Assembly: GCA_963754485.1 (NCBI GenBank)
Contig: CAVWFY010000011.1
Location: 156,833-220,832 of the forward strand
DNA from: an uncultured Chloroflexia bacterium
GTDB lineage: Bacteria; Chloroflexota; Limnocylindria; Limnocylindrales; CSP1-4
Reading direction: 5' to 3'
Length of the DNA stretch: 64,000 nucleotides
Positions 10,058 through 59,845 of the stretch are shown here, piece after piece. How positions within the stretch are numbered: the stretch's first letter is position 1; the number at the start of each line of letters is the position of its first letter. The notes beneath the pieces are model-generated. The model made no database searches. It had not been told where the DNA came from and saw only the letters and a program-made list of their open reading frames with translations. Position numbers and translations under genes: made by a program.

Positions 10058-10190
10058 CTGCCCCGCGAGCATACCGGCCCGACTCGCAGCGGCCATTCCG
10101 GGATAGTCCCTCACGCGGGACCGATGATGGTCCGGGTCGCGGTGCCGCCCCTCGACGCGGGACAGGCCGGGTCGGGAGTACGATCCGGGC

Positions 10191-10571
10191 GTGCAGGACC
10201 CCCGGATCACTCCCCTTCGCATCGATGCCGACCGGGCCGCCGGCACCCTTCGCATGGGCTGGGCGGACGGGCACGCCACGACCTACGACACCGTCACCCT
10301 CCGCTGGCTGTGCCCGTGCGCCTACTGCCGCGGCGAGGCGGGTATGCCCGGCTGGCTGGACTCGAACCCCACGCTGACGGCCGAGCAGACGCGCCTCGTG
10401 GACGTGGCCCTCGTGGGCGCCTACGCCATCCAGGCGACCTGGGGCGACGGCCACGCCACGGGCTACCACACGTTCGACCTGCTGCGCGACATGTGCCCGT
10501 GCGGCGAGTGCACGCGGGCCCGTGAGCAGCGGCTCGCAGAGGATCGCCACTCGCACGGAGAGGACCGATGA
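10191..10571 (+). CDS. DUF971-family protein (gamma-butyrobetaine hydroxylase N-terminal-like; Cys-rich)
   Basis: Duplicated DGHAT.Y....LR..CPC..C motif. Confidence 0.7.
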   Translation: MQDPRITPLRIDADRAAGTLRMGWADGHATTYDTVTLRWLCPCAYCRGEAGMPGWLDSNPTLTAEQTRLVDVALVGAYAIQATWGDGHATGYHTFDLLRDMCPCGECTRAREQRLAEDRHSHGEDR

Positions 10572-10921
10572 TCATCACGACTACGCCGTTCGTCGCCGGG
10601 TATCGCGTCACCGAGACCCGCGGGCAGGTCTTCGGGCTCGTCGTCCGCAGCCGGGGCCTGGGCGGCAACATGGTCGCCGGTCTTCGGTCCATCATGGGCG
10701 GCGAGATCCACGAGTACACGAGCCTCCTCGAGGACACCCGCCGCCAGGCCATCGATCGCATGGTCCAGAACGCGACCATCATGGGGGCGAACGCGGTGAT
10801 CTCGATGCGCTTCGACTCGACCGAGCTGGCCGGGACGATGTCCGAGATCGTGGCCTACGGGACCGCGGTCTTCCTGGTTCCCGACGAGGCCGCGGTCCAG
10901 GCGGTCCCGGCGATCGAGTAG
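10568..10921 (+). CDS. YbjQ/UPF0145-family protein
   Basis: GYRVTETRGQVFGLVVRSRGLGGNMVAGLRSIMGGEI..., a typical YbjQ sequence; ATGA overlap with DUF971. Confidence 0.8.
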   Translation: MIITTTPFVAGYRVTETRGQVFGLVVRSRGLGGNMVAGLRSIMGGEIHEYTSLLEDTRRQAIDRMVQNATIMGANAVISMRFDSTELAGTMSEIVAYGTAVFLVPDEAAVQAVPAIE

Positions 10922-10924
10922 GCC

Positions 10925-11278
10925 GTGGGCGTGATGCTCGCGCGGGTCCTGGTCGGGACCCTGGGCGTCCTGCTCATCCTGGGCGGCATCGGCCTCGCCG
11001 CCGTCACGGGACCGGGTGGCAGCCTCGGTTCCGCGCTGTTCCTGTTCGTGCCCGGCGTGCTCATGATCGCCGCCGTGATCCTGGAGCGGACGCGATACCG
11101 CTCCCTCCACTCCGAACGGACCGGGGACAACTACGGCCCCGGGGGCGGCGAGCCGGGCGCCCCGGAGCCGCGCTTCCGGCCCACGGACGAGCGCTTCGTG
11201 GATCCCACGACGCACGTCGCGATGCGCGTCTGGCTGGACCCGGCCACCGGCGAACGGAGGTATGTGCCGGAGGGCTGA
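10925..11278 (+). CDS. Small membrane protein, hypothetical
   Basis: Two predicted TM helices; no recognisable family. Confidence 0.45.
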   Translation: MGVMLARVLVGTLGVLLILGGIGLAAVTGPGGSLGSALFLFVPGVLMIAAVILERTRYRSLHSERTGDNYGPGGGEPGAPEPRFRPTDERFVDPTTHVAMRVWLDPATGERRYVPEG

Positions 11279-11387: not shown

Positions 11388-13559
11388 ATGGCCACCGTTC
11401 GACCCGCCCCCGGACCTCGTGTCGCAGGCCGCGGTCGACGTCGGGCCGCCCGCGATCAGAAGGGTCCGATCCTCAACCGCGAGCTCTCCTGGATCGAGTT
11501 CAACGCGCGCGTCCTGCACGAGGCTCGCGACACGCGCAACCCGCTCCTGGAGCGCGTGAAGTTCCTCGCGATCTTCGCGTCCAACCTGGACGAGTTCTTC
11601 CAGGTCCGGGTATCCGGCCTGCGGCGCCAGGACCGGTCGCGCAGCGTCCACCACAGCCTCGACGGCCTCACGCCCTCCCAGCAGCTGGACGCTATCCGCG
11701 ACCGTGTCCGGGAGCTCATCGGCGACCACTCCGACATCTGGATGGAGATCCGCGCGGAGCTGGCCGCGGAAGGCGTGCAGATCCACGACTACGACGAGGT
11801 TCCGGAGCACCACGAGACCCTGCGGCGCCGCTTCCACGACGAGATCTTCCCGGTGCTGACACCGCTCGCTGTGGACCCCGGTCATCCGTTCCCCTACATC
11901 AGCACCCTGAGCCTGTCGATCGCCGTCGGCCTGCGCGACCCGGAGACCGGCGAGCGGCGCTTCGCGCGCGTCAAGATCCCGCCGATCCTCCCCCGCCTGT
12001 TCGCCGTGGAACGCGACAGGTTCGTGCTCCTCGACCAGGTCATCGAGGCGAACCTGGACGAGCTGTTCCGGGGCATGGAGATCCTGGAGACGCACCTGTT
12101 CCGGGTGACCCGCGACGCGGACATCGCGATCGAGGAGGACGAGGCCGACGACCTGCTGCTGGCCATCGAGGAGGAGATCCGGCGGCGGCGCTTCGGCGAG
12201 GCCGTCCGCCTCGAGGTGGAGCGCTCCATGCCGGAGCTCACGCGCCAGATCCTGATCAAGGGGACGGGCGTACGGGACGAGGACGCCTTCGAGGTCGCCG
12301 GCATGCTGGATCTCACGGCGCTGTGGCAGTTGGTGAGCCTGGATCGCCCGGATCTCAAGGCCCCGGTCCACAGCCCGGTGATCCCCCAGCGGCTGCTGCC
12401 GCTGGACGAGGACGAGCCCACGGACGTCTTCGCACAGATGCGCGCGGGCGACATCTTCGTCCATCACCCCTACGAGTCGTTCACCGCGTCGACGGAGCGG
12501 TTCATCGACCAGGCCGCGGACGATCCCGAGGTCCTCACGATCAAGCAGACCCTGTACCGGACGTCTGGCCAGTCACCGATCGTGGGCGCACTCATCCGCG
12601 CCGCGGAGGCGGGCAAGCAGGTCGTGGTGCTGGTCGAGATCAAGGCCCGCTTCGACGAGGAGAACAACATCGTCTGGGCCCGCCGCCTCGAGCAGGCCGG
12701 CGCCCACGTCGTGTACGGCCTGGTCGGCCTCAAGACGCACTCCAAGGTGGCCCTGGTGGTGCGGCGGGAGGGCAGCGGCCTCCGCCGCTACATCCACATC
12801 GGCACCGGCAACTACAACGGCAAGACCGCGCGCCTGTACACGGACCTCGGGTTGCTGACCTGTCGCGAGGAGCTTGGCGCGGATGTCACCGACCTGTTCA
12901 ACGTCCTGACCGGCCTGTCCCGCCAGCGCGTCTTCCGTCGTCTGCTCGTCGCCCCGATGACCATGCGCACGCGGTTCATCGAGATGGTGGAGCGCGAGAC
13001 GGCCCACGCGCAAGCCGGCCAACCGGCCCGCATCGTGCTCAAGGTCAACTCGCTGGTGGACGTCCAGGTGATCGAGGCGCTCTACGAGGCCTCGAGGGCC
13101 GGCGTGGAGATCGACCTCATCGTGCGCGGCGCGTGCTGCCTGGTCCCGGGTGTCGAAGGTGTCAGCGAGCGGATCCGCGTCCGTTCGATCATCGGCGAGT
13201 TCCTGGAGCACTCCCGGATCTGGATGTTCAGCAACAGCGGGCGCGCCGAGTGGTACATGGGCTCGGCGGACCTCATGGAGCGCAACCTTGACCGGCGGGT
13301 CGAGGTGGTGACACCGGTCGAGGACCACGAGGCCCAGGCCCGCCTCGCCCGGATCATCGAGGTCCTCCTCGCGGACGACCGCCGGTCGTGGCAGCTGGGG
13401 GCGGACGGGCGGTGGGCACGGACGGAGGTCCTCGAGTCCCGCGAGGGCACGGTGGAGACCTTCGCCGTCCTCAAGGAGGACGCCGCGACCGCGAGCGCGC
13501 TGGCCGACATCCCACGCCGTCCGCACGCGAATGCGGGCTCGATGGATCCTCGGGCATGA
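11388..13559 (+). CDS. ppk: Polyphosphate kinase 1
   Basis: LNRELSWIEFNARVLHEA, FLAIFASNLDEFFQVRV, and two PLD-like HSK motifs; start taken at MATVRPAP. Confidence 0.9.
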   Translation: MATVRPAPGPRVAGRGRRRAARDQKGPILNRELSWIEFNARVLHEARDTRNPLLERVKFLAIFASNLDEFFQVRVSGLRRQDRSRSVHHSLDGLTPSQQLDAIRDRVRELIGDHSDIWMEIRAELAAEGVQIHDYDEVPEHHETLRRRFHDEIFPVLTPLAVDPGHPFPYISTLSLSIAVGLRDPETGERRFARVKIPPILPRLFAVERDRFVLLDQVIEANLDELFRGMEILETHLFRVTRDADIAIEEDEADDLLLAIEEEIRRRRFGEAVRLEVERSMPELTRQILIKGTGVRDEDAFEVAGMLDLTALWQLVSLDRPDLKAPVHSPVIPQRLLPLDEDEPTDVFAQMRAGDIFVHHPYESFTASTERFIDQAADDPEVLTIKQTLYRTSGQSPIVGALIRAAEAGKQVVVLVEIKARFDEENNIVWARRLEQAGAHVVYGLVGLKTHSKVALVVRREGSGLRRYIHIGTGNYNGKTARLYTDLGLLTCREELGADVTDLFNVLTGLSRQRVFRRLLVAPMTMRTRFIEMVERETAHAQAGQPARIVLKVNSLVDVQVIEALYEASRAGVEIDLIVRGACCLVPGVEGVSERIRVRSIIGEFLEHSRIWMFSNSGRAEWYMGSADLMERNLDRRVEVVTPVEDHEAQARLARIIEVLLADDRRSWQLGADGRWARTEVLESREGTVETFAVLKEDAATASALADIPRRPHANAGSMDPRA

Positions 13560-15346
13560 CCGAGGTCCCGGGCGCCGGACCGCTCGAGATCGAGCTGAAG
13601 TACCGCATGACCGATGCCACGACGGGCGATCGTCTGCTGGCCGCCGATGATCTCGCAGGGCTGACAGCTGCCGCCCCCGTCGAGACCGTGGTCCACGAGG
13701 ACCGGTACGTGGACACGCCCGACGGTGCGCTGGCGGCCGCGGGGTACGCGGGGCGGTTCCGCTCGAGCGGCGACGAGACGATCATCACGCTCAAGGGCCT
13801 CCACCGGCAGGACGATGGCGGGGCCGCCCATCGGCGCGAGGAGCTGGAGGGTCCCGCGGACCTCGAGACGGCGGCGCCGGCCTGGCCGGAGTCCGCGGCG
13901 CGCGACGCGGTGATCTCGATCGTCGGCGAGGCGACGCTCGGCGAGCTGGTCCGCGTCCGCCAGGTGCGGCGCAAGCGGGACTATGCTGCGAACGGCACCA
14001 TCGTGGAGCTGTCCGTGGACGACGTGGAGGTCGTGATGGGCGACCGCGTGATCGAGCGGTTCGCGGAGCTCGAGGTCGAGCTGCGCCAGGGTGACGAGGC
14101 GGCCCTGGAGCCACTGGTGGATCTCCTGTCCGAGATCGAGGAGCTCGTTCCCGCCGAGACGTCCAAGCTCGAACGCGCCATGGAGGCCGTGCGCCGTGAG
14201 GCGGAGGCGGGCGACGGCGAGCCCGACGAGCCCGAGAAGGACGAGCCGGATGGTGGCGTGACCGGGATCCCGGTCATGGACCGTCCCGCCGATGCCGACA
14301 CCGTTGCCGGGGATGCCGAGCTCCACGCCGACGCCACCGAGGCCGCCGAGGCCGCCGAGACCGTTGAGCCCGAGGCGGACGCCGAACCAGTCCCGGAACC
14401 GCCGCGGATCATCGTCCCCAAGACACCCGGGGTCCTCGCGGACGACCACCTGGCCGAGGCCGGCCGCAAGGTCCTGCGCTTCCACCTGGCCCGAATGATC
14501 ACGCGCGAGCCCGGCACCCGCGTCGGCAAGGACCCGGAGGAGCTGCACGGGATGCGCGTCGCCACCCGCCGCCAGCGGGCGGCGTGGCGGGTCTTCGGGG
14601 ACGCCTTCGACCTCGATCGCACCGACCGTTACCGGCGCCGGCTCAAGCTGGTCGCGGCAGACCTGGGCGGCGTGCGGGATCTCGACGTCCTGATCGAGGC
14701 CGGCGAGAAGTACCAGGGCCGGCAGTCCGCCGTCGAGGCCAGGGCCTTCGAGCCGCTCCTGCAGTCGTGGCGCGTCCAGCGTGAAACCGCCCGCGAGGTC
14801 CTGATCAAGGAGCTCGACAGCAACCGGTACCGCAAGTGGCTCGACGCCTACATCGAGTTCGCCCAGGCGGACGGCATCGGCGCCCGCCAGGTCGGACCCA
14901 CGGATCCGCACCGCGTCCGGGACACGATGCCCTCGCGCATCTGGACCGCCTACGAGGTCGTGCGCGCCTACGAGCCCGTGATGCGCTGGGCCGACGTCAC
15001 GACGCTCCACGACCTGCGCATCGCCGCCAAGTGGCTCCGCTACACGCTGGAGTTCGTGCGCGAGGCGCTCGGTCGCGATGCCGGGCCCGTGATCGAGAAG
15101 GTGGTCGCCCTGCAGGACCACCTGGGCTGGCTCCACGACGCCGACGTCGCCGCCAACCTCGCGCGGGGGTATCTGGTGGAGCACGCGGGATCCCTGTCCG
15201 AGGGGGAGAGCGCCGCCATCGGGCGGTACCTCGTGGACCGCGAGCGGGAGCTGGCCCGCCTGCGGCGGACGGTCGGTCCGCCGTGGCGCGGCGTTGCAAG
15301 CCTCGCATTCCGGCGCTCGCTCGGACGAGTGGTCGCGGGACTCTAG
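13556..15346 (+). CDS. CYTH-CHAD domain protein (triphosphate tunnel metalloenzyme plus CHAD)
   Basis: EIELKY CYTH start, an acidic linker, and a CHAD region (HGMRVATRRQRAAWRVF); ATGA overlap with the ppk1 stop. Confidence 0.8.
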   Translation: MTEVPGAGPLEIELKYRMTDATTGDRLLAADDLAGLTAAAPVETVVHEDRYVDTPDGALAAAGYAGRFRSSGDETIITLKGLHRQDDGGAAHRREELEGPADLETAAPAWPESAARDAVISIVGEATLGELVRVRQVRRKRDYAANGTIVELSVDDVEVVMGDRVIERFAELEVELRQGDEAALEPLVDLLSEIEELVPAETSKLERAMEAVRREAEAGDGEPDEPEKDEPDGGVTGIPVMDRPADADTVAGDAELHADATEAAEAAETVEPEADAEPVPEPPRIIVPKTPGVLADDHLAEAGRKVLRFHLARMITREPGTRVGKDPEELHGMRVATRRQRAAWRVFGDAFDLDRTDRYRRRLKLVAADLGGVRDLDVLIEAGEKYQGRQSAVEARAFEPLLQSWRVQRETAREVLIKELDSNRYRKWLDAYIEFAQADGIGARQVGPTDPHRVRDTMPSRIWTAYEVVRAYEPVMRWADVTTLHDLRIAAKWLRYTLEFVREALGRDAGPVIEKVVALQDHLGWLHDADVAANLARGYLVEHAGSLSEGESAAIGRYLVDRERELARLRRTVGPPWRGVASLAFRRSLGRVVAGL

Positions 15347-15397
15347 CCGGAGGGGCGGCGCCGCCTGCGATCAGGGGCCCGGCGCGGCACCGGTCCC

Positions 15398-16605
15398 CTA
15401 CTCGATCGGCCAGTCCTCCTCGGACCAGCCGCGGACCAGCACCCGGAGACGGTCACGCCAGGCCGGACCCGCTGCCGCGGCGGCGATCACGAGTCCCTCG
15501 CGGATCCCCTCTTCGGACACGGTCAGGCGCTCCGCGGCGTAACGCTCCAGGATCGCGTCCACGATGATCGCCCCGGCCGGCAGGATCCGTGCGCGGGCCG
15601 GTCGGACGAGGTGCCGCTCGGCAGCCTCAAGGCTCCGCTCGACGGTCAGCATCGCGAGCGCCACCGTCAGCCGCCGTCGGGTGAGGACGTGATCCAGGGC
15701 GGTCGCCGGGAGCAGCCGGAGCAGGTTCGCCGCCGTCCCGCCAACCGCAACGATGTCGCCGGGATGGATCGCGGGAGCATCGGCCAGGATCTCCCGGACG
15801 CGAACCCTGACCGCCTCGAGGTCCGCCAGCGTCGGCGGATCGCCGCGCACCAGGTCACGAGTCAGGCGCGCAGCGCCCAGCGGGAGTCCCGTTGCGTGCA
15901 CCTCGCCCGCCGCACTGACGACGACGAACTCGGAGCTGCCTCCGCCGATGTCGACGACGAGCAGATTGGTCTCGATGGGCCGGCCCTTGGTCACGCCCAG
16001 GAGCGTGAGCAGGCCCTCCTCGTCGTGGTCGACAACATGCAGCGGGACGCGGGCGCGCACCTCGACCGCCGAGACGACTGCCGCCGTGTCCTCCGCACGC
16101 CTCAACGGTTCGGTGCCCACGATCGTGATCCGCTCCGCGCCGAGCTGGCGGGCGGTGTCGGCATAGGCGACGAGCGACGCCACGAGCTCCTCCCGGGCAT
16201 CGATGCCCAGATGCCCGTCAGCCGCGACCCGATCGCCAAGGCCCAGGAACACGGACTCGTCAAGGAGCGGCTCCACGCTGTGGCCACCGACCGCCGCGAC
16301 GAGGAGATGGACGCTGGTCGACCCGACGTCAATGGCGGCCCCGATGACGGCCCCGGCCGCGATCTCGATCTTGGCCGCCGCGGGCTCGGGTTCGGGTGAC
16401 GGCTCGATGGGCTCGGGTTCGGGTGGCGGCTCGGGTGACGGCTCGGGTTCTGGCTCAGGTTCTGGTTCAGGTTCAGGTTCTGGTTCTGGTTCAGGTGGCC
16501 TCAGCTCGGGCGCCGGTTCCGGCTCGGCGGCCTCCGGCTCAGCGGCCTCCGGCTCAGCGGCCTCCGGCTCAGGTTCTGGCTCGGGTTCTGGCTCAGCTGG
16601 CCTCC
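15398..16605 (-). CDS. ppx: Ppx/GppA exopolyphosphatase domain; no in-frame start codon near the domain; probably continuous with the lysine-rich ORF upstream after correcting one indel
   Basis: [15 protein letters not shown] followed by DIGGGSSEF; upstream in the same frame only (EP)n repeats and no ATG/GTG/TTG; the rest of the ORF frame (R/P-rich) is a shadow. Confidence 0.75.
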
Positions 16606-16680
16606 GGCTCAGGCTCGGGCTCGGGCTCCACCAAGGGCTCAGGCGCCGGTTCAGGTTCGGGCTCGGGCTCGACGGCCGAA
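16381..16680. repeat. Imperfect GAACCN hexanucleotide (Glu-Pro codon) repeat tract, about 300 bp
   Basis: ggctcgggttcgggt... repeats on the plus strand encode (EP)n on the minus strand; the EP reading phase jumps by one near 16593-16605. Confidence 0.75.
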
Positions 16681-17129
16681 TCCGACGGCACGCGATCAAC
16701 GATGTGGGACGCCGCAGGCTCCCCCACCTGGCGAACGAGGCTGGCGAGCTCCTCGAGCACCGTCCCGGCCGCCGCCGCCAATGCCGTGGAGCGGCCGACT
16801 TCTGCATCTCCCTGCTTCCGGTGTCGCGTCGCCCTGCCGCCCTCCGTATCGGGGGACGTCTTCGGAGCCGCCGCCGCGGACTCCTTCGCGGACTCCTTCG
16901 TGCTCCTCGCGGTGGCCTTCTTGGGCGCCTTCGCGGCCTTCTTGGGCGCCTTCGCGGCCTTCTTCGCGGACTTCCGGGCGAGCTTCTCCGCCTTGTCGGC
17001 GGCCTTCTTCGCGGCCTTCTTCGCGGCCTTGCGGGCCTTCTTGCCGGTCTTGGGACCGCCTGCCAGCGCACCGGCGGCTGACCCTGTGACGCCGGTCGTG
17101 ACCTCGATGTCCCCGGCGTCCGGCATCAC
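16593..17129 (-). CDS. Lysine/alanine-rich histone-H1-like protein; probable N-terminal part of Ppx
   Basis: [42 protein letters not shown], then [16 protein letters not shown] and an EP repeat that ends at a TGA inside the repeat tract; the R/P-rich overlapping frame uses rare AGA/AGG codons and is the shadow. Confidence 0.55.
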
Positions 17130-17256
17130 GTTCCTCCTGACTGAGCTGGGGCACCCGCGACGGAGCGCGCTGTGGCCACCAGTCTGCCGCAGGCGGGAGC
17201 GTCGCGCTGACGGGTACCGCGCGTTGACAACACGTTAACCGGCGTCGAACGAGTCG

Positions 17257-18036
17257 TTGACGGGTGACGCCGATGATCCGCTCGTGGTCGCCTTGCCGCC
17301 TTCCAGTCCCGAACCCAGCCCCGACCAGGTCGCCTGCTTCGCCGGACGGGAGCGGACCGCCTGGCTCGTGCTGGCCAATGGCGGGCCCGCGGTCGCCCTC
17401 CCGGAGCTGGCCGCTACCAGGGCGGTCAATGTCACTGCCGATCCCCGACGCTTCCGGGACATCCTGCTCGCGGAACGACCGAGGATCGTGGTGGTCTGCC
17501 AGCCACCGGCTGGTGACGAGGACCTGGGCCTCGTGGCGTCCGAACGACGCCGTCGACCCCGGCTTCGCGCTCTGCACCTTGCACCCCCGGGGGCCGTCGC
17601 CGACCGCATCGCCGCCCTTGCCCGGGGCTTCGACGACGCGCTCACCACGACGACCACGAGCGGGGAGTTGGCCGCGCGTCTGGAACTGCTCGAGGCTCGG
17701 GCTCGGGAACGTCCCGTGCCCGGCTCCACGCTGCCGGTCGCGCACGGCGTTGAGCTGGACCTGGTCGCTCACGAGGTCCGGCGCGATGCGCTCGCCGTCC
17801 ACCTCCGACCGAAGGAGTTCGGCCTGCTGGCGCTCATGGCGTCCCACCCGGGCCGTGCATACACCCGGCAGGAATTGCTCGAGCGCGTGTGGGGGAAGGG
17901 GCACGAGAGTGGCGTCCGCACGGTGGACGTCCACGTCCGCTGGCTCCGCACGAAGATCGAGAGCGATCCGGAGCGGCCAGCCCATCTCGTGACCGTGCGC
18001 GGCGTCGGCTACCGCCTGGATCCGCCCTTGCGTTAA
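17257..18036 (+). CDS. OmpR/PhoB-family winged-helix regulator with degenerate (pseudo-)receiver domain
   Basis: C-terminal trans_reg_C (LRPKEFGLLALMASHPGRAYTRQELLERVWG...VRTVDVHVRWLRTKIE...VRGVGYRL); the N-terminal 140 aa lack the DD pocket and the phospho-Asp context. Confidence 0.7.
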   Translation: MTGDADDPLVVALPPSSPEPSPDQVACFAGRERTAWLVLANGGPAVALPELAATRAVNVTADPRRFRDILLAERPRIVVVCQPPAGDEDLGLVASERRRRPRLRALHLAPPGAVADRIAALARGFDDALTTTTTSGELAARLELLEARARERPVPGSTLPVAHGVELDLVAHEVRRDALAVHLRPKEFGLLALMASHPGRAYTRQELLERVWGKGHESGVRTVDVHVRWLRTKIESDPERPAHLVTVRGVGYRLDPPLR

Positions 18037-18152
18037 CCGGACCTTAACACCTCGCACACGACCTGTTGACAGCCCGGCCCGAACTTCGGCTCTGTAGAAG
18101 ACCAGAGGCGTCGCACGCGCTCGGGGCGCGACGCCAGACAAGGAGAACCTCC

Positions 18153-19178
18153 GTGACGCTCGCATCAACCAAGCGCATCGGCGCACTCGCCCTGGCTGCG
18201 ACGGTCCTCGTCGCAGCGTGCGGCAGCTCGACGGCCACGTCCGCCCCCGCCAGCGGCGCTCCTGCCGGTGGTGGCGTGACCGGCGCCATCAACGTGTCCG
18301 GCTCGTCCACCGTCGAGCCGATCTCCACGGGTGTGGCCGAGGCGTTCGCGGCCGCCAACGCAGAGTTCACCTACACCGTCGAGGGCCCCGGAACCGGCGA
18401 CGGGTTCAAGAAGTTCTGCGCGGGCGAGACCGACATCTCCGACGCCTCCCGCAAGATCAAGGACGAGGAGGCCAAGGCCTGCGCCGACGCCGGCATCGAG
18501 TATGTCGAGCTCAAGGTCGCGATCGACGGCATGTCCGTCCTGACCTCGGTGAACAACAAGGCGGTCGCCTGCCTCAGCCTCGCTGATCTATACGCGCTGA
18601 TCGGACCCGAGTCCACCGGGTTCGCCAAGTGGAGTGACGCCGCGGCGCTTGGCAAGGAGCTCGGGTCCAACACCGTCTTCCCCGACGCAGACCTCTCCAT
18701 CACCGGGCCCGGCGAGGAGTCCGGCACGTTCGACAGCTTCGTCGAGCTCGCGATCGCGAAGACCGCCGAGAAGCGTGGCCAGGAACCCAATACCCGCCCC
18801 GACTACACCGCCTCGTCCAACGACAATGCGATCATCGACGGGATCTCGGGCAGCGACACGTCGCTCGGCTGGGTGGGCTTCGCCTTCGCCGAGGAGAACA
18901 GGGACAAGGTCAGCGAGATCCAGGTCTCCAAGGACGTCAACGGGACCTGCGTCGCCCCGACTCCCGAGACCATCACCGACGGCTCGTACCCGCTCTCCCG
19001 CGACCTCTTCATCTACGTCAACAAGGCCAAGGCAGCCGCGAACCCCGCCGTCGTCGCCTACGTCGACTACTACCTGGCCGACGGGACGATCGACTCGGTC
19101 CTCCAGACCGTCCCCTACGTCGGCCTCACGGCCGAGGCGCTCGCCGAGACGCGGGCGACCTGGGACGCGTCGAAGTAG
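18153..19178 (+). CDS. pstS: Phosphate ABC transporter substrate-binding lipoprotein PstS
   Basis: AGGAGA RBS at 18141-18146, GTG start, lipobox LVAAC, PstS-like body. Confidence 0.9.
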   Translation: MTLASTKRIGALALAATVLVAACGSSTATSAPASGAPAGGGVTGAINVSGSSTVEPISTGVAEAFAAANAEFTYTVEGPGTGDGFKKFCAGETDISDASRKIKDEEAKACADAGIEYVELKVAIDGMSVLTSVNNKAVACLSLADLYALIGPESTGFAKWSDAAALGKELGSNTVFPDADLSITGPGEESGTFDSFVELAIAKTAEKRGQEPNTRPDYTASSNDNAIIDGISGSDTSLGWVGFAFAEENRDKVSEIQVSKDVNGTCVAPTPETITDGSYPLSRDLFIYVNKAKAAANPAVVAYVDYYLADGTIDSVLQTVPYVGLTAEALAETRATWDASK

Positions 19179-32766: not shown

Positions 32767-33460
32767 CTACCCGTCGAGCGCGGCCGCCTCCACGCAGCAG
32801 GCGACGACGCCCAGACGGGCCAGCCGATCGAATGTCGCGCGACGGCGCACCGTCCAGGCTGCCACCTCGAGGCCGGCCTCCCGCGCACGCACGATCGAGG
32901 GCGGGGTGATTGCGCCCCACAGGACGGAGACCGCGCGACAGCCCAGGTCAACCGCCAGCGAGAGCGTCGCGGGCGAGAGATCCTCCGCGTTGAGCCAGCG
33001 GGTCCACCCCGGCAGGCGGTCCCGCATCACGACGAGCGTCGTCGGCTCGAAGGACGAGACCACCGCCGTCGACGGTGCCTCGCCGCGAGCCGAGCGCATG
33101 ACGGCCGCCGTGACCTCTCCATGACCGTCTCCCTTGAGCTCGATGTCCATCCAGGCCTTCGGGAGCGCGGCGAGCACGTCGTCGAGGCGCGGAATCCCGT
33201 GACCGGCGAGCTCCGAGGTCTCGACGCGGTCCACGCCCAGCGGCACGTGCTGGACGCGCTCGAGCGTCGCATCGTGGAGCAGGACCGGGACGCCGTCGCG
33301 TGACAGGCGGACGTCAAGCTCCACGCCATGGCAGCCAGGAATTCCTCGTCGCAGCAAGCAGCGCCTCGAGCGTGTTCTCCGGGGCGACCCGCCAGTCGCC
33401 GCGGTGCGCGAGCCGAAGGGGCCGCCGCCCCTCCCCGGGTCCAGCCCCGAGCCGGGTCAC
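32767..33460 (-). pseudogene. Glycerophosphodiester phosphodiesterase (GDPD) family gene interrupted by one +1 frameshift near 33330-33350
   Basis: N-terminus LAHRGDWRVAPENTLEALLAA in one frame and GVELDVRLSRDGVPVLLHD in another; span is 3n+1; the shift lies in a gagg context. Confidence 0.6.
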
Positions 33461-36650: not shown

Positions 36651-38370
36651 TCAGATGGGCGTGGGAGCGCGACCGGCCAGGAAGGCCTCGACGTCCTCGA
36701 TGGAGCGGACCACCTTCTCGCCGGTCTCGCGGTTCTTGACCTCGATCCCGCCGGCCTCCAGCGAGCGTGGGCTGACGGTGAGGATCCAGGGCATGCCCAG
36801 GAGGTCGGCGTCGGCGAACTTCACGCCCGGGGACTCGTCGCGATCGTCGTACAGGATCTCGTGGCTTGGCCCCGCGGCGGCGGCCAGGTCGTGGAGTCGC
36901 TCCGCGATCACGGTGACCTCGGGGTTCTTGTTGGCGCCGAGCGCGACCAGGTGCGCCGGGTACGGGGCGACCTCGGCGGGCCAGGCGATGCCCCGCTCGT
37001 CGTGGTGGGCCTCGACGATGCAGGCGACGTTGCGCCCGAGGCCGATGCCGTACGAGCCCATGACGATGGGGTGGCGCTCGCCATCCTCGCCCAGGTACTC
37101 GGCACCGAGGGCTCTGGTGTACTTCGTCCCGAGCTTGAAGATGTTGCCGACCTCGATGCCGTTGCGCAGGATCACGGTCCCGCCGCAATCGGGGCAGGCG
37201 TCGCCTTCGCGGACGCTGGCGATGTCGGTGACGATGTCCGGCGTGAAGTCGCGCGGGACGTTGACGTTGCGCAGGTGGAAGCCCGGCCGGTTGGCACCGG
37301 CGACGAGGTTCGCGCTCTTCGCGGCCAGCGCGTCCACGACCACGAGCGCGTCGCGGGCACCTATCGGTGAGCCGTAGCCGGGCTCCATGCCGCGCGCCTT
37401 GATCTCGTCGACCTGGGCCGGGCGCAACCCGCCCACCGCCTTGATCGCGTTGACAAGCTTCGTCTCGTTGACGTCGTGATCGCCCCGGACGATGGCCACC
37501 ACGAACTGGCCGGCACCGGTCACGAAGAAGGTGGCCTTGGCCGTCCTGCTCGTGGGCACGCCGAGGAAGGCGGCCAGGCTGTCGATCGTCGTGGCGTCGG
37601 GCGTCGCGACCTCCTCGATCGCGAGGGGCTCCTCCGCGACCGGGTCCGGCGCCGTCGTCGGCGCGACCTGGCGGTTCGAGGCATAGCCGCAGGACTCGCA
37701 CAGGACGAGCACGTCCTCGCCCGCCGGGTTGAGGAACATGAACTCGTGGGCCAGCGAGCCGCCCATCATCCCGACGTCCGAGGACACGGCCACGGTTGCG
37801 AGGCCCAGGCGCTCGAAGATCCGGGTGTACGCCGCGGTGGTGCGCCCAGTACGCCGTGTCGAGGCCGGCCTCGTCCCGGTCGCAGGTGTAGCTGTCCTTC
37901 ATGACGAACTCGCGGACGCGGATCAGGCCGCCGCGCGACCGGGGCTCGTCGCGGAACTTCGTCTGGAAGTGGTAGACGATGAACGGCAGCTGCCGGTAGC
38001 TCCGCACGATGTCCCGAAGCAGGTCAGCGACGACCTCCTCGTGCGTCATGGCGAGCACCATGTCGCGGTCCGCACGGTCCTTGAAACGGGCCATCTCGGG
38101 GCCGATCGCGTCGTAGCGGCCGGTCTCGCGCCAGAGATCCGCCGGGTGGACCACCGGCATCTCCATCTCCTGCCCGCCGATCGCGTTGAGCTCCTCGCGG
38201 ATCACCTGCTCCACCCGCTTGCTGACGCGGAAGCCCAGCGGCAGCAGCGAGTAGATGCCGGCGCCCAGCTGGCGCACGTAGCCCGCCCGCAGCAGCAGGC
38301 GGTGGGACGGCATCTCCGCCTCGGAGGGATCGTCGCGGAGCGTGGTGAAGAACAGGTTGGAAAGGCGCAT
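36651..38370 (-). pseudogene. proS: Prolyl-tRNA synthetase (bacterial type with editing domain) carrying a single +1 frameshift near 37825-37832; probably a sequencing indel in an essential gene
   Basis: N-terminal 179 aa in one frame (MRLSNLFFTTLRDD...DTAYWAHHR) and the remaining 380 aa (..AYTRIFERLGL...) in another; span is 3n+1; removing one g from cgcggcg restores AHHRAYTRIFERLGL. Confidence 0.85.
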
Positions 38371-38405
38371 GGCGCGAAGGATACCGGGCCGGAGGCGCCG
38401 GGCGG

Positions 38406-39527
38406 TCAGCCCACCGCGAACAGCGCCAGCAGCACCCCGCCCGCCACCGTGCTCGCAACCTGGCCGGCCGCGTTGGCGCCCATCGCGTGCATCAGCGGGA
38501 AGTTCTCGAAGTCGTCCTGCTGTGCGACGCGCTGGACGACGCGTGCCGCCATCGGGAAGGCGCTGATCCCGGCGGCGCCGATGAGCGGGTTGAACGTCCC
38601 GCCCGAGACCGTGTTGATGCCCTTGGCGAACACGATCCCGGCCGCGGAATCCAGCGCGAACGCGAGGATCCCGAGGACCAGGATGGCCAGGGTGCTGGGC
38701 AGGAGGAAGGTCTCGCCCACCATCGTGGAGCCGATGGCGAGCCCCAGGAACAACGTCACGACGTTCGCGATCTCGTTGGCGGACGCGTGGGTCAGGCGCT
38801 CGACGACGAGCGACTCGCGCATGAGGTTGCCCAGCATCAGCGAGCCGACGAGCGGCGTCGCGAACGGGACGAGGATCCCCACCACCATGGTCACCGCCAC
38901 GGGAAAGATGATCCGGGTGCGGCGGCTGACCGTTCGTCCGCCGTAGGTCATCCGGATCTTGCGCTCCTTCTCGGTCGTGAGCAGGCGCATGACCGGCGGC
39001 ATGATCAGCGGCACGAGCGCCATGTAGCTGTAGGCGGCTACGGTGATGGGACCCAGCAGCTGTGGCGCCAGGATCCCGGAGACGTAGATGGAGGTGGGGC
39101 CGTCGATGGCGCCGATGACCCCGATGGACGCCGCCTCGGGCCGGGTGAACCCGATGGCGAGGGCGAGCAGCATCACGGCGAAGATGCCGAACTGGCCCGC
39201 AGCTCCAAGAAGGACCATCTTCGGGTTCTCCAGCAACGGCCCGAAGTCCGTCATCGCGCCGATGCCGATGAAGATCAGCAGCGGGAACAGCTCGTTCTCG
39301 ATGCCCGCCTCGTAGAGGACGGTGAGCAGCCCGTCGGGGCCGATGACCGGGGACAGCGGCAGGTTCGCCAGCAGACAGCCTGCGGCGATGGGCAGGAGCA
39401 GGAGCGGCTCGTAGTCCTTGACGATCGCGAAGTACAGGAGGAGGCCCGCCACCGCGAACATGACCACGGACTGCCAGCTCAGCGCCGTGACCCCTGCGAG
39501 CAGCTGGTCGATCGTCTCCTGGCTCAT
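38406..39527 (-). CDS. Na+-translocating decarboxylase beta subunit (OadB/MmdB/GcdB family)
   Basis: Polytopic membrane protein with typical beta-subunit sequence (FIGIGAMTDFGPLL, NLMRESLVVERL). Confidence 0.85.
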   Translation of the reverse strand: MSQETIDQLLAGVTALSWQSVVMFAVAGLLLYFAIVKDYEPLLLLPIAAGCLLANLPLSPVIGPDGLLTVLYEAGIENELFPLLIFIGIGAMTDFGPLLENPKMVLLGAAGQFGIFAVMLLALAIGFTRPEAASIGVIGAIDGPTSIYVSGILAPQLLGPITVAAYSYMALVPLIMPPVMRLLTTEKERKIRMTYGGRTVSRRTRIIFPVAVTMVVGILVPFATPLVGSLMLGNLMRESLVVERLTHASANEIANVVTLFLGLAIGSTMVGETFLLPSTLAILVLGILAFALDSAAGIVFAKGINTVSGGTFNPLIGAAGISAFPMAARVVQRVAQQDDFENFPLMHAMGANAAGQVASTVAGGVLLALFAVG

Positions 39528-59243: not shown

Positions 59244-59845
59244 ATGAGCGAGACCAACCCCATCGAGACGATCGCCCTGGCGCGACAGACCGGCCTCGGG
59301 CTGTACGTCACCGCCAAGGAGGCGTACGACATGTGGCAGGCCGACCCGGGCCTGAAGATCCTCGACGTCCGCACGCCCGGAGGAGTTCGTCTTCGTCGGC
59401 CACGCACCGATGGCCACGAACATCCCGTTCGCGCTCCAGACCTACGAGTGGGATCCGGAGAAGAAGGCGCTCCGCTGGGAGCTCAACCCCGAGTTCGTCG
59501 CGGCGGTGCAGGCGTGGGCCGCGCCCGACGAGCAGATCCTCGTCGCGTGCCGGTCCGGCGGCCGCTCCGCGATGGCGATCAACATGCTGGCGAAGGCCGC
59601 CGGGTACACGCGCGGCCTGGAACATCCTCGACGGCTGGGAGGGGAGCCAGGTCAAGGACCCCGAGAGCGTCTTCGACGGCATGCGCATGAAGAACGGCTG
59701 GAAGAACTCCGGCCTGCCCTGGACCTACGAGATCGATCCCCGAACGGATGCAGCTGCCGCCGCGCGAGAGCCGCGACGTTCGTGGCCGGGAACGAGCACG
59801 ACTGACGTACGACCGCGGTCCACCGTCCGCGCCGACGAGGAGTGA
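59244..59845 (+). pseudogene. Rhodanese-domain sulfurtransferase gene interrupted by two +1 frameshifts (near 59378 and near 59614)
   Basis: AAGGAGG RBS; LKILDVRTP | EEFVFVGHAPMATNIPF...ILVACRSGGRSAMA...GYTR | WNILDGWEG spread over three frames; span is 3n+2; both shifts are single-base insertions at G/C dinucleotides. Confidence 0.65.

Follow-up and report, generated by a model that had tools for sequence, protein, structure and literature searches.

What gene, or genes, does a Ppx/GppA domain belong to when it has no start codon of its own and a lysine-rich reading frame breaks off just upstream of it? This is the question raised by positions 15398-17129 of a 64,000-nucleotide (64-kb) stretch of DNA from an uncultured Chloroflexia bacterium (assembly GCA_963754485.1, contig CAVWFY010000011.1), the whole of which is here called the window, with positions counted from its first letter. 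The feature lies on the minus strand of the window. The original prediction was that a lysine-rich (K-rich), histone-H1-like N-terminus, a Glu-Pro (EP) repeat and a Ppx/GppA domain form a single protein that is hidden by a one-base frame break, and that single protein is indeed found intact in the relatives L002 and P0001 and in more than 60 homologues. It is now probable, to a degree that falls well short of certainty, that the two frames are one gene running from 17126 to 15398 on the minus strand and encoding a modular exopolyphosphatase of ~575 aa, with the break most probably an error of sequencing or assembly.

The span from 15398 to 17129 is 1732 nt long, which is 3n+1 as had been noticed. 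The upstream open reading frame (ORF), here ORF A, starts at GTG 17129 or ATG 17126 and runs to a TGA at 16595-16593, its product starting MPDAGD and consisting of a Lys/Ala-rich stretch and then an EP repeat that ends EPEPEPEAS before the stop. The ATG is the likely start because it is the only one shared with both L001 and L002, the GTG at 17127-17129 not being conserved. Between 17125 and its stop at 15400-15398 the Ppx/GppA frame stays open; upstream of ~16597 it reads as Arg-rich nonsense, EP coding begins at that point and the Ppx domain follows, with 72 codons of EP coding upstream of the catalytic part. The two frames are offset by +1 inside the EP repeat, and both the one-nucleotide difference in phase and the TGA within the repeat are as the original prediction had them. 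The Ppx domain was also said to have no start codon nearby, and its frame holds no ATG, GTG or TTG between 16698 and 16340, only a CTG at 16504 and some ATC/ATT codons, with the nearest canonical starts (TTG 16699, ATG 16807 and GTG 17071) all in the part that reads as nonsense.

The composition of the tract changes frame at the break, with Glu and Pro making up a fraction of 0.77 of the residues in the frame of ORF A upstream of it and 0.79 in the Ppx frame downstream, against 0.24 and 0.01 respectively in the opposite frame, and the synonymous GAR and CCN variation within the tract marks the third codon positions. The minus-strand sequence of the junction is CCGGAGGCC[A]GCTGAGCC, and an identical 17-mer without the A occurs again 40 nt downstream. 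The extra base, T16598 on the plus strand, falls in one copy of the 15-nt tandem unit GGCCGCTGAGCCGGA, inside a period-15 array of 6.7 copies at 16518-16612 that was detected with Tandem Repeats Finder (TRF). Removal of one base near 16596-16603 was expected to give a single ORF, and deletion of T16598 gives one of 576 codons if the GTG is the start and of 575 aa if it is the conserved ATG.

A comparison with orthologous genes had been proposed for K-rich and EP extensions, and it has found them arranged in the same way. The repaired protein as query gave 409 homologues, many with a length of 480-816 aa and a query coverage of up to 95%. More than 60 of them, all from Chloroflexota metagenome-assembled genomes (MAGs) or metagenomes, have within a single ORF an MxxAGD-like N-terminus, a Lys/Arg/Ala-rich block, a short conserved motif, an acidic Pro/Glu-rich linker and then Ppx. 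P0001 is an intact protein of 556 aa on a JGI contig with 94% identity over the aligned catalytic part, and L002, the contig of P0002, has an unbroken ORF of 519 aa with ~95-97% amino-acid identity, the same ATG and the same first residues. The fusion is real, because so many homologues encode the architecture as one ORF and because a relative as close as ~95-97% identity is intact. Thirty related loci were taken from GTDB species representatives, all of them Chloroflexota MAGs and several named Candidatus Limnocylindrales, and in 19 of the 30 the K-rich block, or its conserved motif, is in one frame with Ppx. It is apparent that the architecture is common in a clade of uncultured Chloroflexota and is not peculiar to this genome.

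It is not found throughout the group, as a subclade of ~72% identity (P0036, P0046, P0048, P0051 and P0052) has proteins of ~320 aa without the N-terminal extension, whose ATG or GTG start lies a few residues ahead of the first catalytic motif. These occur on both JGI and ENA contigs, so gain or loss of the extension has taken place inside the group. Database entries give the homologues no other name than "exopolyphosphatase" or "hypothetical protein", and full-text searches of the literature turned up neither a paper on a Ppx that is Lys-rich or extended nor one on polyphosphate (polyP) in Limnocylindria. The architecture is a new form of a known kind of enzyme, and the frame break itself is ordinary.

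Where, then, does the break come from? It is most likely an artefact of assembly and not biology. The original prediction spoke of other genes in the window disrupted by indels, and there are at least four further one-base insertions in the same 64 kb, one each in proS and a GDPD gene and two in a rhodanese gene. In proS (36654-38421, minus strand) an extra C lies near 37832-37837 (CACCAC[C]GCGGCG), where the protein reads ...YWAHH in one frame and AAYTRIF... in the other; the tRNA-synt_2b profile is divided over the two frames (positions 3-73 and 86-179), with the homologue in L018 unbroken. In the GDPD gene (32776-33442, minus strand) an extra A near 33343 (AGG[A]ATTCC) puts the first ~35 codons, with HRGD...PENT among them, out of frame with the rest, and the L018 homologue reads RVPGCDGVELDV straight through. 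The rhodanese-like gene (59245-59770, plus strand) changes frame near 59385 (VRTP/EEFVFVGH) and again near 59620 (AGYTR/AWNILDGW), and by their sequence both changes look like one-base insertions. A single-copy prolyl-tRNA synthetase gene cannot normally be lost, and its disruption here points to sequence error. With at least four other insertions, one of them in proS, the assembly needs polishing. Other apparent frame switches seen in a scan of GC content at third codon positions (GC3) and in tblastn, for example at 10143-11275 and at pstC/pstA, proved to be shadow ORFs or adjacent genes and not breaks.

Breaks also occur in the orthologous genes of other assemblies. The MFD MAGs were built from Nanopore data only and polished with Medaka (PMC12313526), and 7 of 17 of their loci (L004, L005, L011, L019, L022, L028 and L031) have breaks inside the N-terminal extension. 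None was found in the 9 loci that have a complete N-terminal region and contig names in the style of MEGAHIT/SPAdes, or in the 11 with L001 and L002 included, and a Fisher test of Nanopore MFD against other assemblies gives p = 0.058 (0/9) and p = 0.023 (0/11). The broken MFD loci have one or more breaks in repeats coding for Lys/Ala or Glu/Pro, with L031 seemingly broken within the catalytic part as well and L011 running past the normal stop. On such loci gene callers give a truncated Ppx of ~390-570 aa (P0018, P0029 and P0100).

Some points weigh against an error. The non-MFD assemblies were taken as short-read from their contig names alone, and the Nanopore association is only modestly significant. 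No exact copy of the 178-aa ORF turned up in public assemblies, scans of metagenome DNA gave 0 matches to the junction with or without the extra base and 0 matches to a conserved 53-mer from where the catalytic part begins, and in a scan of the genome contigs of GTDB species representatives the best match was of 83% identity, the source species being absent. No independent copy of the strain came up in these searches, and a real and recent inactivating mutation keeps a small share of the probability.

If the frameshift is real, which is unlikely though not negligibly so, this would be a recent ppx pseudogene or an OFF variant, whose product would be a K-rich/EP protein of 177 aa, counted from the ATG, with no Ppx made. 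The break is after all present in the sequence as given, no independent assembly was found to contradict it, and it lies in a fast-evolving region. A DNA alignment has the EP tract of the window ~130 nt longer than that of L001 and L002 with the break within the window-specific expansion. The four other one-base insertions in 64 kb, above all the one in proS, nevertheless speak for error, and relatives from assemblies with contig names of short-read type are all intact. The Ppx part downstream of the break is undecayed, with codon structure and high GC3 preserved and every catalytic motif kept. A phase-variable contingency locus was considered and rejected: the inserted base has the context GCC[A]GCT with no homopolymer run, and the break is in a period-15 unit. 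TRF finds periods of 6, 12, 15, 18 and 27 in the EP tract, together with a weak overlapping call of period 7. The EP repeat units are multiples of 3, therefore slippage keeps the frame, and with the inserted base outside any homopolymer there is no mechanism for phase variation.

It is very improbable that the break is instead a programmed +1 frameshift, by which a regulated fraction of full-length Ppx would be made at AGC-UGA with GGAGG as a Shine-Dalgarno-like stimulator, as in prfB. The site, CC-GGAGG-CC-AGC-UGA-G, does have GGAGG 2 nt 5' of the last sense codon with an in-frame UGA next, and a +1 shift would restore the Ppx frame, but this GGAGG belongs to the repeated PEA codons of the tract (CCGGAGGCC) and has three more copies downstream without a shift, whilst moving from AGC to GCU gives no re-pairing of the tRNA. 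No orthologue keeps the shift site, as intact relatives are unbroken here and the tract is absent from the closest ones; the breaks of the Nanopore MAGs fall at differing places, and +1 insertions of the same sort occur in unrelated genes of the window. Equally hard to credit is a pair of separate genes, one for a small K-rich/EP protein and the other for a Ppx made by re-initiation or from a non-canonical start (CTG 16504, ATC 16369/16363), for although the related subclade does have short Ppx forms of ~320 aa that begin just before the catalytic domain, those forms have proper starts, whereas here there is no ATG, GTG or TTG for ~350 nt and no ribosome-binding site ahead of the non-canonical candidates, EP coding in the Ppx frame extends the full 72 codons upstream of the catalytic part, and the closest relatives are single ORFs. 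The gene is thus most probably neither a pseudogene nor one of two genes nor a case of programmed frameshifting, and the inserted base is most probably an error, so that an annotation should repair the break and record a single ppx.

Read as a single gene, the locus encodes in turn a short acidic N-terminus, a predicted amphipathic helix of 60-120 residues, the conserved motif, the acidic spacer and the catalytic core, which are taken here from the catalytic end. The core matches PF02541 at E 5e-36, with 125 bits against a cut-off of 27 and profile positions 2-279 of 285 covered, and its best matches by sequence in the PDB are the Aquifex aeolicus PPX/GPPA structures 2J4R and 1T6C (E ~4e-23). 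A Foldseek search, which used the model of the orthologue P0001 and not the window sequence, found 1T6D and 1T6C as best matches with TM scores of 0.83-0.85, and the AlphaFold2 (AF2) model of this 94%-identical orthologue has a two-domain ASKHA fold with a predicted confidence (pLDDT) above 95 in the core. The motifs DxGSxS, EEG and DxGGGSxE all align with Aquifex 2J4R, IDVGSTS with IDIGSNS, DHDEEG with TPEQEG and the third with VVDQGGGSTEY. The score for TIGR03706 (exo_poly_only), 180 bits against a cut-off of 307, is below the curated model and marks a family relative only, and that for NF008108, the long PPX, is 64 bits against 864. The C-terminal domains III/IV are absent, as the protein ends ~25 residues past domain II and matches to 1U6Z, 2FLO and 6PBZ are restricted to their first ~300 residues. 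By homology and by the orthologue model the core is a short two-domain Ppx/GppA of the type of Aquifex and Mtb-PPX1. Homologues of this enzyme family differ in activity (PMC3411833), and as between polyP and pppGpp an exopolyphosphatase role for this Ppx is a putative one.

The N-terminal part had been called histone-H1-like. The Lys/Ala composition behind that name stands, with a net charge of +19 over residues 1-123 of the window protein, but the family does not: no linker-histone or AlgP/PhaF match was found in Pfam/NCBIfam even at E up to 10, and the K-rich segment gave only compositional matches, for example to an adenylate kinase tail and a sigma-factor N-terminus. What sets it apart from such tails is a regular spacing of its charges. 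In the window segment Lys/Arg recur with a periodicity of ~3.6 residues at a power of 15.6, which none of 5000 shuffles reaches, and on a helical wheel the lysines lie on one side and the alanines on the other. Across 57 homologues the Lys/Arg periodicity is 3.6-3.65 residues at 13.7 times noise, and that of Ala/hydrophobic positions is at 7.5 times noise. Proline is near-absent from the segment (2 in the window, 0-1 in relatives) and there are no KPAA arrays. With an alignment of 46 sequences AF2 makes residues 29-100 of P0001 one helix with pLDDT ~84-91, and over the orthologues modelled a single helix of 72 (P0001) or 124 residues (P0076) with pLDDT ~70-91 overall, giving a length estimate of at least ~10 nm (72-124 predicted helical residues at 1.5 Å each). 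Periodicity and models together indicate that the Lys-rich block is a long amphipathic alpha-helix with a straight cationic stripe, for which "cationic amphipathic helix" is the better label.

It is also the only K-rich stretch in the six frames of the whole window. In 62 homologues K/(K+R) is 0.54 in the N-terminal block against 0.03 in their catalytic parts, and in an Arg-preferring genome of 71% GC such an enrichment means that lysine specifically has been selected. The net charge of the block in homologues is mostly +8 to +27, with a mean of +14 and a few at or below 0. A phmmer search with the 149-aa N-terminal module against 1.84 billion representatives matched only P0014 (E 5e-4), a poor yield because the complexity is too low for a single-sequence search.

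The only strongly conserved sequence of the N-terminal extension is a motif of ~25 residues, LxEVAxLVRQxxEPAAxRIVxRV, in which L, A and L are invariant among 46 homologues and E, R and EPAAxRIVxRV near-invariant. In AF2 models of orthologues it is a short helix of moderate confidence (pLDDT ~65-75). A 48-aa profile of the motif had no match at E <= 1 among 5.8 billion proteins, which is uninformative on other enzymes. In P0076, P0087 and P0095 the parts come in another order, with the K-helix followed by an acidic region of TEEPEEPEA type, the motif, 14-29 linker residues and the core. There the motif adjoins the core, and therefore it stays with the catalytic part and not with the helix; as to whether it docks there with confidence, the P0076 model has a pLDDT of only ~75 at the motif. 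The spacer as a whole has a net charge of ~-37 in the window protein and of -2 to -63 in homologues (mean -27), in which the linker is 14-337 residues long (median 129) and disordered in AF2 models. The linker between the two domains of the neighbouring CYTH-CHAD protein (14140-14420, plus strand) is likewise acidic and rich in Glu, Pro and Asp (EAEAGDGEPDEPEKDEPDG...EPEADAEPVPEPP), thus this organism has acidic Pro-rich spacers in more than one of its polyP proteins.

Little is understood of how polyP-degrading enzymes are delivered to their substrate in bacteria, and it is in this context that a role for the extension may be sought. In E. coli, YihI and Rnr bind polyP through Lys-rich regions, with K->R replacement abolishing the binding of YihI (PMC12345225), and a short PPX without a C-terminal polyP-binding region prefers short chains and has poor processivity (PMC3411833). 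Together with the straight Lys stripe, a plausible binding rail, and the AlgP findings given below, these observations are the grounds on which the helix is proposed to supply capture or localisation. It would bind a linear polyanion, most likely polyP or the surface of a polyP granule and alternatively DNA, and would give a short-type Ppx either capture of its substrate or a tether to the granule or nucleoid, a possible counterpart of the C-terminal domains of E. coli PPX. PolyP would repel the acidic Pro-rich spacer, which may act as an extended tether between the anchor and the catalytic core, and the helix predicted for the conserved motif probably serves for docking, either to a partner or to the core itself. 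In P. aeruginosa, AlgP is found on polyP granules, which need its K-rich tail to be evenly spaced, whilst Ppx is not enriched there (PMC9239181). As ligand of the helix, polyP is estimated to be about evenly balanced against all other candidates together, DNA would be a clearly weaker candidate and the rest falls to other anionic partners. A fuller version of this idea is tentative and less likely to be right than wrong: the Lys helix would be a dedicated polyP rail that docks a short-type Ppx on chains or granules, or tethers granules to the nucleoid, with the spacer setting the reach of the catalytic head and the motif recruiting or gating it, for example via CHAD or Ppk1, and the protein would represent a class of exopolyphosphatase, targeted to granules and typical of Limnocylindria-like Chloroflexota, that has not been described before.

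Three considerations tell against such a role. Binding of polyP by the helix is suggested by composition and context, and DNA, RNA and anionic lipid fit these equally well. The existence of a subclade without the extension makes the module clade-specific and dispensable for catalysis. Finally, the charges of the N-terminal block and the spacer do not co-vary (Spearman -0.12, p 0.33) and so give no support to a charge-matched intramolecular switch, which was set aside as a candidate on this result. Nonetheless, a clade-wide Ppx with a Lys-enriched helix in a ppk1-CHAD-ppx-pst locus offers a testable case of polyanion targeting by a charged helix and spacer.

The individual parts have their counterparts in known systems. 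The short Ppx/GppA enzymes (Aquifex 1T6C/1T6D/2J4R, M. tuberculosis PPX1 Rv0496 and C. glutamicum PPX2) have the same two-domain ASKHA core of ~310 residues and likewise no C-terminal domains III/IV, but the solved enzymes, of 299-333 residues, match end to end with no room for an extension, whereas the window-type Ppx has an N-terminal extension of 260-500 residues made up of helix, motif and PE spacer. The long PPX/GppA of E. coli type (1U6Z, 2FLO and 6PBZ; 480-530 residues) belong to the same catalytic superfamily, and the C-terminal domains of E. coli PPX bind polyP and give processivity (PMC3411833). Their extra module consists of folded HD-like domains III/IV at the C-terminus, unlike the charged helix and disordered spacer at the N-terminus here.

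The tails of AlgP, PhaF and histone H1 are likewise cationic, Lys/Ala-rich and of low complexity, AlgP moreover in a polyP context, and peptides from the AlgP tail bind DNA (PMC9239181). The window protein differs from them in its lack of KPAA-type repeats, in having a predicted helix in place of a disordered tail and in being fused to an enzyme. The CHAD proteins of polyP granules are also helical, basic and associated with polyP, and one of them is a genomically linked neighbour, but CHAD (PF05235) is a folded helical bundle whereas the Ppx extension is a single helix with no CHAD match. The Glu-Pro spacers of TonB and of trypanosome procyclin (PARP) have the same (EP)n composition and form extended spacers. 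Matches of the window protein to Trypan_PARP (E 0.0066) and to the Pro-rich region of TonB (E 6.6e-4 and 0.009) are far below the cut-offs; the likeness is compositional only, and the spacer here is cytoplasmic and joins two parts of an enzyme.

Table 1. Parts of the ppx gene and its surroundings in the window, in the order of transcription (columns: feature, position, strand, basis or remark).
Ribosome-binding site AGGAGG, 6 nt 5' of the ATG	17133..17138	minus	read from sequence; kept in L001 and L002 (alignment)
Likely true start, ATG (MPDAGD...)	17124..17126	minus	L002 has GAGATG and L001 GTGATG; the L002 ORF starts here
Lys/Ala-rich segment, residues 29-87, predicted amphipathic helix	16866..17042	minus	periodicity, helical wheel, AF2 of orthologues
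Conserved short helix motif	16689..16778	minus	alignment of 46 homologues; AF2
Acidic Glu-Pro spacer, part in the frame of the K-rich ORF	16599..16673	minus	frame reading
Extra base (T on the plus strand, A on the coding strand)	16598	minus	comparison of junction and repeat
Premature TGA from the frame shift	16593..16595	minus	ORF reading
Acidic Glu-Pro spacer, part in the Ppx frame	16382..16597	minus	frame reading; disordered in AF2 of the orthologue
Ppx/GppA catalytic core: short junction, then two ASKHA domains	15401..16381	minus	PF02541, PDB matches, Foldseek
First catalytic motif, AAIDVGSTS	begins 16339	minus	motif alignment
Gene stop codon, convergent with the CYTH-CHAD gene ending at 15346	15398..15400	minus	ORF reading

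The surroundings of the gene make this a polyphosphate and phosphate locus. On one side lie ppk1 (11421-13553) and a CYTH-CHAD fusion gene (13388-15346), the latter convergent with ppx, and on the other a regulator gene (17257-18036) and a PstS-like gene (18066-19178) are divergent from it. The order pstS-regulator, ppx and CYTH-CHAD-ppk1 is kept in most of the related loci that are long enough to show their flanks, as is the convergence of the CHAD gene with ppx. Within these loci (L003-L032) Ppk1 at 78-89% identity and CHAD at 77-88% are better conserved than the Ppx core at 58-83%. The PstS-like gene is followed by what appear to be further genes of a pst operon, the locus extending to 23850.

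A scan of 15250-17350 for sigma-70 promoters and intrinsic terminators found nothing. The product of the regulator gene, which is on the plus strand, has an OmpR-type Trans_reg_C domain at residues 181-254 and no Pfam receiver-domain match in its N-terminal part of 180 residues, and going by these domains it could be a response regulator of an atypical or orphan kind. Between ppx and this gene an imperfect palindrome, GTTGACAACACGTTAAC, was spotted by eye at ~17215-17240; it also occurs at ~1130-1160 of L002 and may be an operator site.

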